Positions 4,403 through 21,642 of a stretch of DNA of 29,365 nt are shown here, in pieces. Positions within the stretch are counted from its first letter, which is position 1, and each line of letters opens with the position of its first letter. The position numbers were made by a program, and so were the translations under genes. Location of the stretch: IMG/VR virus record IMGVR_UViG_2693429774_000014; one strand, given 5' to 3'. This stretch comes from a virus. Lineage: Duplodnaviria > Heunggongvirae > Uroviricota > Caudoviricetes. Below the pieces are notes generated by a model. The model was not told the origin of the DNA and did not search any database. It worked only from the letters and a program-made list of their open reading frames with translations.

Positions 4403-4455
4403 GGGCGGCAGAGCAGTCACGGAGTAAAACTGATACCGCCAAACGTCACCAGAAA
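4403..4455 (-). ncRNA. dicF: DicF small regulatory RNA (53 nt processed form; intrinsic-terminator U-tract extends to about 4398)
   Basis: Minus-strand sequence UUUCUGGUGACGUUUGGCGGUAUCAGUUUUACUCCGUGACUGCUCUGCCGCCC followed by UUUUU matches DicF as I recall it. Lies between ydfC and dicB as in the K-12 dicB operon. Confidence 0.7.
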
Positions 4456-18470: not shown

Positions 18471-18551
18471 AACCTGAATCAGGGGAGGCCGGAATGTTAT
18501 CTGGCATTTTTAGCAGAGCCTGAATGCCATAATCACGGCTCCCGGAGTTGG

Positions 18552-18590
18552 CCGTCAGTGGGTGACACTGGCGGTTTTTTTGTTTTTCTT
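18552..18590 (+). terminator. Strong rho-independent terminator about 40 bp upstream of the holin gene
   Basis: 9-bp stem CCGTCAGTG/CACTGGCGG (one G-U pair), loop GGTGA, then TTTTTTTTGTTTTT. Confidence 0.65.
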
Positions 18591-18631: not shown

Positions 18632-18838
18632 ATGGAAAAAATCACAACGGGTGTGTCATACACCACGTCAGCGGTGGGGACGGGATACTGGTTACTGCAG
18701 CTGCTGGACAAAGTCTCTCCGTCCCAGTGGGTGGCAATCGGTGTGCTGGGGAGTCTGCTGTTTGGCCTGCTGACGTATCTGACTAACCTTTATTTCAAGA
18801 TTAAAGAAGATAAGCGTAAGGTGGCGCGGGGAGAGTAG
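18632..18838 (+). CDS. S: Phage-21-type holin (class II holin/pinholin family, 68 aa)
   Basis: [68 protein letters not shown] closely resembles S21 as I recall it; two TM segments and a basic C-terminus. Confidence 0.85.
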
Positions 18839-19093: not shown

Positions 19094-19408
19094 CTACCTG
19101 AGCTTTGGTGATAGTAAGTTGAAAATTCGCATTTTTTGCTGACATGCGTAACGAGAATCCCATAAGCAGGGAGGACTTAATTCTTCATTAACCCATGCGT
19201 TGATATTATGTTTCAGCCGTTGAAGCATCAGCGGTGTTAATGTTGTGGTAATAATATCCAGCGTTTTATGTGAGATCTTACCGTAAGGGTCTGCAAGAAT
19301 GCTGCTTGTTGCTTCGTTATTATCTGCCATCAGAAGAAGTAACTCTGATTTAACGTTTTCTGTCATTAGTTGTAAAAATCTTCTGCGCAAACTTTCTTTA
19401 CTGTTCAT
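19094..19408 (-). CDS. YdfR-like hypothetical protein (104 aa) encoded antisense within an AT-rich insert between holin and endolysin
   Basis: ORF on the opposite strand in an AT-rich segment (about 18840-19500). K-12 Qin has a roughly 103-aa ydfR between essQ and rrrQ. Ribosome-binding site is weak. Confidence 0.45.
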   Translation of the reverse strand: MNSKESLRRRFLQLMTENVKSELLLLMADNNEATSSILADPYGKISHKTLDIITTTLTPLMLQRLKHNINAWVNEELSPPCLWDSRYACQQKMRIFNLLSPKLR

Positions 19409-19525: not shown

Positions 19526-20059
19526 ATGAACGAAAAAATAAAATACGGCCTGTCGGCTGCCGTTCTGGCGCTGATTGGTGCAGGTGCTTCTGCGCCTGAA
19601 ATCCTCGACCAGTTTCTGGATGAAAAGGAAGGTAACCACACCACGGCATACCGTGATGGTGCGGGGATCTGGACCATCTGCCGTGGTGCCATTCTGGTGG
19701 ATGGTAAGCCTGTTATTCCTGGCATGAAGCTGTCAAAGGAAAAATGCGACCGGGTTAATGCCATCGAACGTGACAAGGCGCTGGCATGGGTGGAGAAAAA
19801 CATCCGGGTGCCGCTGACCGAACCCCAGAAAGCGGGGATCGCGTCATTCTGTCCGTACAACATTGGCCCCGGTAAGTGCTTCCCGTCGACGTTTTATAAA
19901 CGAATTAATGCAGGCGATCGAAAAGGTGCCTGTGAGGCGATTCGCTGGTGGATTAAGGACGGTGGCAGAGACTGCCGTATCCGTTCAAATAATTGCTACG
20001 GTCAGGTCTCACGGCGTGACCAGGAGAGCGCGCTGGCGTGCTGGGACATCGACAGATAG
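19526..20059 (+). CDS. R: Endolysin, T4-lysozyme-family (GH24) with N-terminal signal-anchor (SAR-type, as in phage 21 R)
   Basis: N-terminal hydrophobic YGLSAAVLALIGAGASAP, then catalytic-triad spacing E-x8-D-x5-T (LDEKEGNHTTAYRDGAGIWT). Pairs with a pinholin-type holin. Confidence 0.85.
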   Translation: MNEKIKYGLSAAVLALIGAGASAPEILDQFLDEKEGNHTTAYRDGAGIWTICRGAILVDGKPVIPGMKLSKEKCDRVNAIERDKALAWVEKNIRVPLTEPQKAGIASFCPYNIGPGKCFPSTFYKRINAGDRKGACEAIRWWIKDGGRDCRIRSNNCYGQVSRRDQESALACWDIDR

Positions 20060-20279
20060 CAGAATATTTTCCTGAAAAATGACGTTGGCCAACGCGGGTG
20101 GATAACACGAAATCCTGAAAACTGGTAAAACCTAAGTGAATAAAAGTAAAAACCCCGTTTGTTGGCAGCAAGCGGGGTTTTGTGTTTTCTGACCTTGAGT
20201 AAGGCAAGGGAGAAATTATGGGTAGGGAGGTACTTTCCCTGTGAGGAAGTATAAAAGATTCTTTCTGAGGTTGTCCATT

Positions 20280-20393
20280 ATGAAAGGCATTGAAGTGGAG
20301 ACGCCAGCCAGTCTGGATTTAACAAGAGCGGCAGCTTTTGCCATTCGTATTGTGGCCATTGCTGTTCTGGTCTGGGCAATCCGTTGGTGGTGA
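20280..20393 (+). CDS. Possible small hydrophobic protein (37 aa) between endolysin and Rz
   Basis: MKGIEVETPASLDLTRAAAFAIRIVAIAVLVWAIRWW. GAGG about 9 nt upstream of ATG; stop is 1 nt before the Rz ATG. Not in the track (under 60 aa). Confidence 0.3.
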   Translation: MKGIEVETPASLDLTRAAAFAIRIVAIAVLVWAIRWW

Positions 20394-20394
20394 T

Positions 20395-20862
20395 ATGAAC
20401 CGTGTTCTGTGCGTGGTTATCATTGTCCTGCTGGTGGCCTGTGGTGCGCTTAGTCTGGGGCTGAATCATTACCGTGATCACGCCATCATCTACAAAGAGC
20501 AGCGCGATAAAAAAGCCAGTGAGCTGGAGCTGGCGAACGCGACAATTACTGATATGCAGATACGCCAGCGTGATGTCGCTGCACTTGATGCCAGATACTC
20601 GAGGGAATTAGCCGATGCGAGAGCTGAAAATGAAACTCTGCGTGCTGATGTTGCCGCTGGTCGTAAGCGCCTGCGGATCAACGCCACCTGCTCCGGTACC
20701 GTGCGTGAAGCCACCGGCACCTCCGGCGTGGATAATGCAACCGGCCCCCGACTGGCAGACACCGCTGAACGGGATTATTTCATCCTCAGAGAACGGCTGA
20801 TGGCAATGCAGAAGCAACTGGAAGGAGCACAGGAATATATCCGTACCCAGTGTATACCGTGA
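20395..20862 (+). CDS. Rz: Rz-like i-spanin (155 aa from MNRVL; track ORF starts at 20338)
   Basis: N-terminal TM (VLCVVIIVLLVACGALSL) then a charged coiled-coil-like periplasmic domain. Contains an embedded +1-frame lipoprotein ORF (Rz1). Confidence 0.7.
   Translation: MNRVLCVVIIVLLVACGALSLGLNHYRDHAIIYKEQRDKKASELELANATITDMQIRQRDVAALDARYSRELADARAENETLRADVAAGRKRLRINATCSGTVREATGTSGVDNATGPRLADTAERDYFILRERLMAMQKQLEGAQEYIRTQCIP
20630..20800 (+). CDS. Rz1: Rz1-like o-spanin lipoprotein (56 aa) embedded in Rz in the +1 frame
   Basis: MKLCVLMLPLVVSACGSTPPAPVPCVKPPAPPAW...: lipobox-like VSAC and a proline-rich mature region. GAGAG ribosome-binding site. Confidence 0.7.
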   Translation: MKLCVLMLPLVVSACGSTPPAPVPCVKPPAPPAWIMQPAPDWQTPLNGIISSSENG

Positions 20863-21327: not shown

Positions 21328-21642
21328 ATGCTACATGATCACGTGGCAGAATGTCTGGAGAAAAAAGGACTGTACCGGAGAGCAGCTGAACGATGGGCAA
21401 AAGTGATGGTACAGCTAAGTGATGACCAGAAAAGAAAAGTGGCGGCACAGAAACGAGCAGAGTGTTTGCGTAAGGCGCGCCGGACTCCGGTTTCACCGGT
21501 GAACCTGACCGAAATAAAACAAGCGGTCAACAGACTACATTCTGAGTTGGGAATGGGATTTGAAGAGCGGCGGGTATTCCGACGATATAAAGGGACAGGA
21601 GAACAGAATACGTCCGGAAACGCGCGGTCAAAAAAATGCTAA
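21328..21642 (+). CDS. PerC-family (Pch-like) transcriptional regulator candidate (104 aa) behind a long AT-rich leader
   Basis: N-terminal LEKKGLYRRAAERW resembles the PerC-family signature I recall (G-aromatic-RRA..RW). Perfect GGAGG ribosome-binding site. About 460 bp of AT-rich, T-tract-rich upstream DNA. Confidence 0.55.
   Translation: MLHDHVAECLEKKGLYRRAAERWAKVMVQLSDDQKRKVAAQKRAECLRKARRTPVSPVNLTEIKQAVNRLHSELGMGFEERRVFRRYKGTGEQNTSGNARSKKC

Follow-up and report, generated by a model that had tools for sequence, protein, structure and literature searches.

What are a terminator-like hairpin and a small open reading frame (ORF) doing between two phage lysis genes that elsewhere overlap? 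The question is raised by the window, meaning here the whole 29,365-nucleotide stretch of DNA that was analysed (IMG/VR record IMGVR_UViG_2693429774_000014), which is the late region of an Escherichia coli lambdoid prophage. In lambda, the endolysin gene R and the spanin gene Rz overlap at an ATGA, and rrrQ and rzpQ of the K-12 prophage Qin likewise overlap by 4 nucleotides (nt; ATGA), with no spacer. In the window, the endolysin gene (19526..20059, + strand; 177 amino acids (aa)) is parted from the gene of the i-spanin Rz (20396..20862, +, with its ATG at 20396) by a spacer of ~335 nt (20060-20395, +). An initial annotation of this DNA placed in that spacer a terminator-like hairpin followed by a run of T, and a 37-aa ORF ending 1 nt before Rz, and all of these were found where it had put them. 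The spacer is probably, at somewhat better than even confidence, one instance of a recurring late-operon cassette, which would combine a moron-like small membrane-protein gene with Q-dependent read-through of the hairpin and translational coupling to Rz.

Sequence comparison indicates that the small ORF is a genuine, conserved protein-coding gene under purifying selection. It can be read as a 50-aa protein from GTG 20241 (MRKYKRFFLRLSIMKGIEVETPASLDLTRAAAFAIRIVAIAVLVWAIRWW; gene 20241..20394, +, with a transmembrane (TM) helix encoded at about 20325-20381) or as the 37-codon ORF of the initial annotation (20281-20394), both ending at TGA 20392-20394, one base before the Rz ATG. Searched against PHROG profiles, the 50-aa form matches phrog_4493 with E=1.4e-24 over profile positions 1-54 of 56, and phrog_1115 with E=2.1e-11; the 37-aa form matches phrog_4493 with E=5.5e-16 over profile positions 14-54, and also phrog_1115 and phrog_3246, all of them families of unknown function. 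The window ORF is thereby a full-length member of phrog_4493, and no family was matched by the small protein in Pfam, NCBIfam or PADLOC. Database relatives numbered 62 and 110, and an exhaustive profile search gave 32 cluster representatives at 50% identity, with members in E. coli, Salmonella and metagenomic phages. Among species-representative genomes no hit was confirmed, the protein being too short to pass confirmation by tblastn. These relatives keep the motifs MKxGxE..AP and AFAI[RK], a basic N-terminus and one hydrophobic helix, and many end in [RK]WW. Their N-terminus reads M[RSE]KYKR[IF][LF]LRL[ST]-MK[N]G... in E. coli, E. marmotae and Salmonella, and distant members from the profile search share the same plan (for example, MKLYRKFFRMRLSMKDG...AAIRWW).

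The pattern of substitution points the same way. Among 12 distinct DNA variants of the 22-codon IRWW core, variable sites are distributed 9/2/13 over the three codon positions, and the ratio of nonsynonymous to synonymous polymorphism (pN/pS) is 0.22 in frame compared with 1.06 and 2.09 in the shifted sense frames. For a paralogue ending ...ALKS, pN/pS is 0.17 in frame and 2.1 and 3.1 in the shifted frames, and every frame but the sense one contains internal stops. Changes in the peptide are conservative (I/V/L and R/K). The N-terminal extension of the 50-aa form differs between lineages by synonymous changes and K/R swaps with its amino acids conserved, which argues that it is coding too. An antisense ORF (20216-20359) was also considered as coding and set aside, because its third-codon positions coincide with those of the sense frame, and because the paralogue's equivalent frame has a higher pN/pS (0.28, compared with 0.17) and is interrupted by an internal stop in one of the eight sequences. 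The full ORF segment is carried by 670 of 5426 complete E. coli genomes. Amino-acid-level conservation in relatives, whose absence the initial annotation had held would count against a gene, is thus present in the PHROG matches, in the pN/pS values and in the Salmonella and metagenomic homologues. Its suggestion of an unannotated small membrane protein held for the small, conserved, hydrophobic gene but not for the lack of annotation: the ORF is already in RefSeq as a PGAP hypothetical protein (WP_000675931.1), and in the O157:H7 strain Sakai as ECs_1094.

The start codon is most likely GTG 20241 rather than the ATG 20281 of the initial annotation, since the 50-aa form fits phrog_4493 better than the 37-aa form; ATG 20281 would then be a conserved internal start. 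This ATG is conserved, with GAGG 9 nt upstream, and the Arg codon preceding the internal Met is always AGG or AGA, which yields the GAGG Shine-Dalgarno (SD) sequence. A long start at GTG or ATG together with an internal Met after GAGG is found in most family members, and two products, of 50 and 37 aa, are plausible from this layout. AlphaFold returned an N-terminal helix of low confidence (residues 3-18) and a second, confidently predicted helix of 28 residues (22-49), with a block-mean pLDDT of 92-95 over residues 31-50. By the positive-inside rule, the model suggests a single-pass inner-membrane protein in N-in/C-out orientation.

Upstream of the long start, an 8-codon mini-ORF can be read from the sequence (MGREVLSL and stop; 20218..20244, +), whose TGA at 20242-20244 overlaps the GTG at 20241-20243. 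It contains a hairpin, AGGGA (20224-20228)/TCCCT (20236-20240), around an internal GGAGG. The Salmonella locus L128 has an equivalent (MCREVYSL and stop) with a GTGA overlap as in the window; the mini-ORF is absent in variants v10 and v22, where the family ORF begins directly with ATG GAA AAG TAT AAA. The first start codon lies only 36 nt from the terminator-type hairpin. In between, a small hairpin (CCTTG-N7-CAAGG; 20193..20209, +) appears in the minimum-energy fold, its 3' arm overlapping the SD sequence AAGGGAG (20206-20212), and similar hairpins with 5-bp stems and 7-nt loops occur in the distant cassettes L128, L134, L134b and L135b. In the window, two of them follow one another, at 20193-20209 (CCTTG/CAAGG) and 20224-20240 (AGGGA/TCCCT), both enclosing SD-like purines. 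Such SD-sequestering hairpins were dropped as evidence, as their energies are no better than those of shuffles (mean z -0.74), and the one at 20193..20209 is only suggestive as a functional element.

The larger hairpin is an intrinsic-terminator type structure at 20149..20191 (+), with a stem of ~13 bp formed by AAAACCCCGTTTG and CAAGCGGGGTTTT (20149-20181), a loop of ~7 nt, an A-tract upstream and the T-rich tail GTGTTTTCTG. The initial annotation had given it a 15-nt loop; the stem in fact continues into that loop (G-C, U.G, U-A, U-A, G-C) to reach 13 pairs. Stem and tail together form the top terminator-like site in a 3-kb scan, a G+C-rich stem-loop (stem of 13-15 bp) followed by a U-tract with 6 U in 10 nt. 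When the intergenic region was shuffled 100 times, no shuffle attained the folding energy (dG about -21 kcal/mol). Across 10 variants, 94.6% of the stem cells are paired, and there are two compensatory pairs, both in the Salmonella copy (U.G to A-U and U-A to C-G). In several variants from Shiga-toxin (Stx) phages, Watson-Crick stem pairs are replaced by G.U, up to three in a row; as these would become A.C mismatches in an antisense RNA, they fit only an RNA of the + strand. The scan for promoter-like sites found none on the + strand within the spacer (20060-20281 included), and nothing credible was returned for the spacer by Rfam at gathering or permissive thresholds, ohsC scoring 20 bits at E=1.5.

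That a terminator should stand here had been called unusual, and in this phage group it proves to be the rule. A 120-nt piece around the hairpin is present in 2004 of 5426 complete E. coli genomes (37%), in up to 7 copies per genome, and the first 156 nt of the spacer, hairpin included, matched ~320 phage records, mostly Stx-converting phages and H-19B. Prophages with an antirepressor gene (ant) in the gap, such as Sakai Sp10, keep the first ~86 nt behind R and have, in place of the hairpin, an unrelated one (GGCACC-GTAAT-GGTGCC) followed by TTTGTCATTT. These phage records, the genome counts and the replacement hairpin of the ant-type spacers make a hairpin after R the norm, and from such comparisons the hairpin is judged to be conserved and to be functionally replaced in other lineages. 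The segment between the endolysin stop and the hairpin (20060..20148, +) is kept over about 86-90 nt in every spacer class, the ant type included, and contains a small inverted repeat (GGAT 20100-20103/ATCC 20112-20115, +) with the conserved loop AACACGAA. From GGCGGATAACAC onward, it also occurs in a prophage of Salmonella, whose lysis cassette is a different one and whose endolysin gene, just upstream of the segment, has another length.

At its other end, the small ORF is, to judge from the sequence of the junction, physically coupled to Rz. Its last codons, CGT TGG TGG TGA, are the Rz ribosome-binding site as well: the junction TGG TGG TGA T ATG at 20386-20398 (TGGTGGTGA; as RNA, the last codons and stop UGGUGGUGA followed by U AUG) contains GGUGGUGAU, which agrees with the extended SD sequence GGAGGUGAU in 8 of its 9 positions; TGGTGGTGAT comes close to a perfect extended SD sequence. 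A stop a few nt from the Rz start and an SD sequence inside the upstream ORF together form the layout of translational coupling. As in the ATGA coupling of lambda and of rrrQ/rzpQ in K-12 Qin, Rz would be fed by ribosomes terminating just upstream, with the SD sequence within the upstream coding sequence; unlike there, the partner is an inserted small ORF and not the endolysin gene, and the arrangement is TGA-N-ATG and not an overlap.

The content of the gap varies among sister prophages. The window-type stop-start junction is present in 120 IMG/VR loci, which were retrieved by their carrying CGYTGGTGGTGAWATGAA and sort into distinct classes by the length of the R-to-Rz spacer. Spacers of about 297 nt carry a phrog_6632 ORF ([M]FDFSKLIREIRVMAEKLSTWKF...GQIRWW and stop), those of about 334 nt are of the window type, those of 437 and 641 nt contain three or four consecutive small membrane ORFs that finish with MSAELIRAMAFAIRIVAIAVLVWAIRWW and stop, and in the remaining loci the insertion is larger. 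In all classes IRWW and a stop lie one base before Rz, an ending that carries no weight in this set because the search pattern imposed it; the profile search, which was free of that constraint, also gave many diverged members with a terminal [RK]WW. The window-type and phrog_6632-type peptides were compared by hhalign, and homology is not shown (probability 0.4%). PHROGs 6632 and 4906 are alternative small ORFs of the same R-Rz gap in sister prophages, and in many phages that share this holin and endolysin the site is taken by other small ORFs or by ant.

The family is also found in other settings. In Salmonella, a holin/lysozyme pair (the holin from a different family, the lysozyme of 161 aa) precedes its gene and Rz follows it; PF03245 (Phage_lysis) is recorded for this Rz, and the upstream module is that of the window: GGCGGATAACAC..., hairpin, AAGGGAG, 8-codon mini-ORF and GTGA overlap. 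The Salmonella paralogue ends 10 nt before Rz, which has its own SD sequence, GAAGG. Upstream of the conserved hairpin module, the Salmonella locus L128 also has a 29-codon hydrophobic ORF (2724-2813; MICFVAAFMLACDGRSGWGWFLLVGLIVM) whose start overlaps the lysozyme stop as ATGA. The family ORF also stays 1 nt before Rz in a prophage remnant that occurs in >1600 index blocks of an assembly collection. Other members stand before a lysozyme gene (L142), between two myovirus baseplate genes and after tail-fibre genes, and the distance to the next gene (lysozyme, likely portal, baseplate) is 0-3 nt, the likely portal being so called from how its N-terminal sequence reads. Behind a capsid gene of the lambda E type (L135), three near-identical hairpins form an array in which small membrane ORFs follow every hairpin, and one of these ORFs is holin-like (phrog_920, E=1.3e-6); in the metagenomic arrays L134 and L135, family members are followed by another hairpin and not by a gene start. 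Of eleven family copies examined, nine stand behind a strong hairpin, and most directly adjoin the gene that follows, be it Rz, a lysozyme, a likely portal or a baseplate gene. In 10 cassette instances examined, a strong hairpin with a 5' A-tract and a 3' T-tract precedes the ORF, and for 8 of the 10 its energy was matched by 0 of 100 shuffles. In nine other cassette instances, strong hairpins non-homologous to that of the window occupy the same position. These instances define the recurring unit as a hairpin, a small membrane ORF and a tight junction to whatever gene comes next. Lysis genes are the neighbours in about half of the contexts sampled. The proposal that the small protein belongs to the lysis cassette stands for its place between endolysin and Rz here and fails for relatives at capsid, likely portal, baseplate and tail-fibre junctions.

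How might such a unit work? Read 5' to 3', the cassette would consist of the conserved post-endolysin tail, the terminator-type hairpin, a ribosome-binding region and the gene for a 50-residue single-pass membrane protein ending in Arg-Trp-Trp. Q-dependent read-through of terminators is established for lambdoid phages. During lytic growth, Q-modified RNA polymerase from PR' would pass the hairpin, and the cassette would be made only within the late transcript; the small protein would be produced alongside the lysis proteins and inserted into the membrane N-in/C-out. The mini-ORF, with its strong SD sequence, may feed ribosomes into the 50-aa frame, and ribosomes terminating on the small ORF would reinitiate on Rz, in place of the ATGA overlap of cassette-free phages. 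In the lysogen, the hairpin would halt unmodified polymerase, and neither the small protein nor the spanins would be made. As for the protein itself, our best guess is a non-essential accessory membrane factor of the moron type, possibly one that modulates lysis. A lysis-modulating role is attractive, given that about half of the contexts are at lysis genes and that the layout has two starts; a dispensable moron-type accessory is favoured by the non-lysis contexts and by the gene's being freely exchanged for unrelated small ORFs or for ant.

The comparison with lambdoid morons, as described in HK97 and HK022 and exemplified by lambda bor and lom and HK97 gp15 (Juhala et al. 2000), is close in several respects: an extra small gene lies between late genes that overlap elsewhere, it encodes a small membrane protein, it is mosaic and interchangeable, and a factor-independent terminator is associated with it. 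It differs from them in that no promoter of its own was detected, in that the hairpin is upstream and not downstream, and in that its stop-start coupling to the next late gene resembles part of a late transcript and not a unit expressed in the lysogen. Under the Juhala/Hendrix definition, the gene does lie between genes that are adjacent in related phages, and the sigma-70 promoter and downstream terminator that the definition also includes were not found. This non-classical layout is one of several points that weigh against the explanation just given. The presence of the family at non-lysis junctions weakens a role specific to lysis. A strong-hairpin relative lies inside a myovirus baseplate gene cluster, and that myovirus is presumably without Q-type antitermination; if so, the hairpin may be an RNA 3'-end stabiliser or an attenuator and not a lysogen insulator. 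Some copies of the small ORF are frameshifted or have in-frame stops (MAEKLST-stop-KF...), in the spacer of the Stx2a phage Stx2_14040 (L003) and at IMG/VR loci with 330-333-nt spacers, which makes the gene dispensable at least in cryptic prophages. Finally, ECs1094 was found in no searchable paper or ribosome-profiling supplement, and no expression data were found for the locus, nor any published data on release of RNA polymerase at the hairpin.

Other explanations account for parts of the same evidence. It could be that the small protein is a dedicated lysis regulator, one half of a holin/antiholin-like pair or a releasin-like partner of the pinholin and the signal-anchor-release (SAR) endolysin, made from two starts. 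Two in-frame starts are a hallmark of the holins lambda S and phage 21 S21. The position between endolysin and spanin genes in both E. coli and Salmonella, the place before lysozyme in L142 and the array shared with a holin-like ORF in L135 all fit, and the internal Met is conserved after a 13-residue extension of charge +5, with GAGG before it. Like lambda S105/S107, phage 21 S68/S71, P1 LydB, P2 LysA and the Mu releasin gp25, it would be a small membrane protein within a lysis cassette, and with the dual-start holins it would share two conserved in-frame starts differing by a positively charged N-terminal extension, a resemblance of architecture only. Unlike those holins, it has one TM helix, a C-terminus of only RWW with no charged tail, and members outside lysis cassettes; no holin, antiholin or lysis family was matched in Pfam, NCBIfam or PHROGs, and many phages with the same holin and endolysin have other small ORFs or ant at this site. 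A dedicated regulator is considered unlikely. Somewhat further from favour, a widespread mobile late-operon cassette of enterobacterial temperate phages, made up of a strong hairpin, a dual-start single-pass membrane peptide and an Arg-Trp-Trp-stop junction, may hop between junctions (R/Rz, a likely terminase/portal junction, behind the capsid gene, baseplate, tail fibre) without stopping translation of downstream genes, with Chi at the RWW codons accounting for the shared 3' junction and the peptides being a new class of late membrane effectors, such as modulators of lysis timing. Chi (GCTGGTGG) occurs 10 times in the window, 8 times on the + strand, compared with 0.8 expected from shuffles, with sites listed at 19944-19951, 20385-20392 and 20430-20437 and 7 others; this is about the density of the E. 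coli chromosome. The RWW codons of the window (with CGT) form a one-mismatch Chi, GTTGGTGG, and in sister cassettes CGC TGG TGG is a perfect Chi. By analogy with lambda, RecBCD coming in from the right-hand cos end would meet it in the active orientation, and on this hypothesis Chi could explain both the junction shared by several ORF types, at least two of them dissimilar, and mosaicism starting just upstream of it. Selection for Chi in RWW was looked for and rejected: CGC makes up 7 of 11 Arg codons, with no clear departure from normal codon usage. One endolysin Chi copy falls at the codons I-R-W-W of EAIRWWIKD, and the small ORF ends in the same AIRWW peptide.

The initial annotation had also offered a translational-coupling leader for Rz; in its pure form, the only task of such a leader would be to carry ribosomes to Rz across an inserted non-coding spacer, the peptide having no function. 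In its favour are the stop 1 nt before the Rz ATG with the SD-like GGTGGTGAT within the last codons, the IRWW ending shared at the junction by three dissimilar ORF types (the window type, phrog_6632 and MDNNSEMDK...), and the ATGA coupling of R to Rz in spacer-free phages. A leader of this kind would not explain purifying selection with conservative I/V/L and R/K changes, nor N-terminal and AFAI[RK] motifs kept far from the junction; moreover, the Salmonella paralogue ends 10 nt before an Rz with its own GAAGG, and the L134 and L135 members precede a hairpin and not a gene. As a mere leader the ORF is improbable. Less probable again is a regulatory small RNA (sRNA), independent or derived from the 3' untranslated region, consisting of the conserved 130 nt after R and the hairpin, with the ORF incidental. 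No other part of the spacer is so widely conserved (2004 genomes, compared with 670 that have the full ORF), the segment has a terminator with a U-tail and an A-R-N-type run (AAU AAA AGU AAA AAC) just upstream, and AgvB, AsxR, PasA, PasD and STnc100 are encoded in this region of lambdoid prophages (PMC4104026; bioRxiv 10.64898/2026.05.13.724894). Against an sRNA, no promoter-like site on the + strand lies upstream and Rfam has no match, the fold of 20060-20195 is ordinary (z -1.55), and selection on the ORF would be left without an explanation. None of 63 Hfq-CRAC candidates from Sakai (EcOnc; Tree et al. 2014, Table S2) maps to the R-Rz spacer of Sp4 or Sp10, a weak negative as the cultures were apparently uninduced. 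AgvB and AsxR were rejected as this element because they adjoin the moron site at PR', and PasA because it lies between the esterase and holin genes. Least likely of all is a module resembling a type I toxin-antitoxin, with a mok/hok-like leader and an antisense RNA of ~100 nt from a minus-strand site, ending at the hairpin. That site (TGGACA, 18 nt, TATACT; 20277-20248 on the - strand) agrees with the promoter consensus at 10 of 12 positions and points toward the hairpin, A- and T-tracts on both sides of the hairpin in all cassettes would allow bidirectional termination, the mini-ORF stop overlaps the GTG start, and a hok/sok-type locus is present in the same window (Rfam sok, 114 bits). With hok/mok/sok the locus shares a small hydrophobic peptide, a short leader ORF overlapping its start and an antisense promoter-like site facing a hairpin; it differs in being coupled to a downstream gene inside a late operon, in having no significant Rfam match and in its sense-favouring G.U pairs, A.C mismatches in any antisense RNA. 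The promoter hexamers sit in codons conserved for protein (L-S-I and K-Y-K), the region shows no excess of promoter-like sites (3, with 5.6 expected), and no Hfq-bound RNA is listed at the Sakai Sp4 position, which has an identical cassette.

The late-operon cassette with a moron-like membrane-protein gene, which we continue to prefer, appears to be previously undescribed as a recurring architecture. No paper discussing the gene family or the R-Rz spacer was found; the family is known as PHROGs, all listed as of unknown function, and as RefSeq hypothetical proteins, and the architecture was in no description found. The gene is in at least one-eighth of complete E. coli genomes and the hairpin segment in more than one-third, including O157:H7 Sakai and many Shiga-toxin phages, and it is located in the cassette that controls host lysis and hence toxin release. 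If the protein modulates lysis timing or the spanins, it would be an added component of the pinholin/SAR-endolysin pathway of Stx phages. If the hairpin and peptide form a mobile unit, they would provide a compact case of gene insertion into coupled late operons with downstream expression intact. If neither holds, the result is a corrected annotation, with a 50-aa gene from GTG 20241 behind a terminator-type hairpin.

The arrangement is widespread in its immediate surroundings as well. A 701-nt query (19900-20600) found it base for base in many complete genomes; it is annotated in O55:H7 RM12579, and prophage Sp4 of O157:H7 Sakai has an identical gene order. In these matching genomes, the endolysin gene is labelled lysozyme or phage endolysin, and Rz is labelled lysis protein or endopeptidase; both genes were taken from the ORF list. 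In Sp4, the order of lysis genes is as in the window, the 37-aa ORF included, and the segment is chromosomally inverted, flanked by IS629 and adjoining pchA, a regulator of the locus of enterocyte effacement (LEE). K-12 Qin was ruled out as a source of a validated small-protein homologue, there being no spacer in it.

Among the neighbouring genes, that of the class II holin (18632-18838, +; 68 aa) encodes a protein that may resemble the phage 21 pinholin S21. Rz1, the o-spanin, is embedded in Rz (20615-20800, +). The endolysin has a hydrophobic N-terminus (GLSAAVLALIGAGA) and may be of the SAR type by analogy with R21 (PMC8136144). Between holin and endolysin, a minus-strand ORF (19094-19408; 104 aa) matches phrog_1853, of unknown function (E=3.5e-47); RefSeq has a shorter, 273-nt hypothetical form of it. 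Rfam matches elsewhere in the window are sok antitoxin RNA (114 bits), STnc100 (101 bits), DicF (77 bits) and three tRNA genes, and the matched elements are listed at 11534-11708 (+), 16024-16196 (+), 4403-4454 (-) and 15004-15250 (+). STnc100 is related to PasD according to a preprint (bioRxiv 10.64898/2026.05.13.724894). Another terminator-like hairpin, GGCCGTCAGTGGGTGACACTGGCGGTT followed by TTTTTGTTTT, lies between the esterase gene and the holin gene (18550-18576, +), the position at which the Storz-laboratory preprint puts the PasA/PasC sRNA genes (esterase-PasA-holin-lysozyme), an agreement of position only. Downstream of Rz, there is an ORF of the PerC family (21328-21642, +; in Sakai Sp4, L126 4366-4680).

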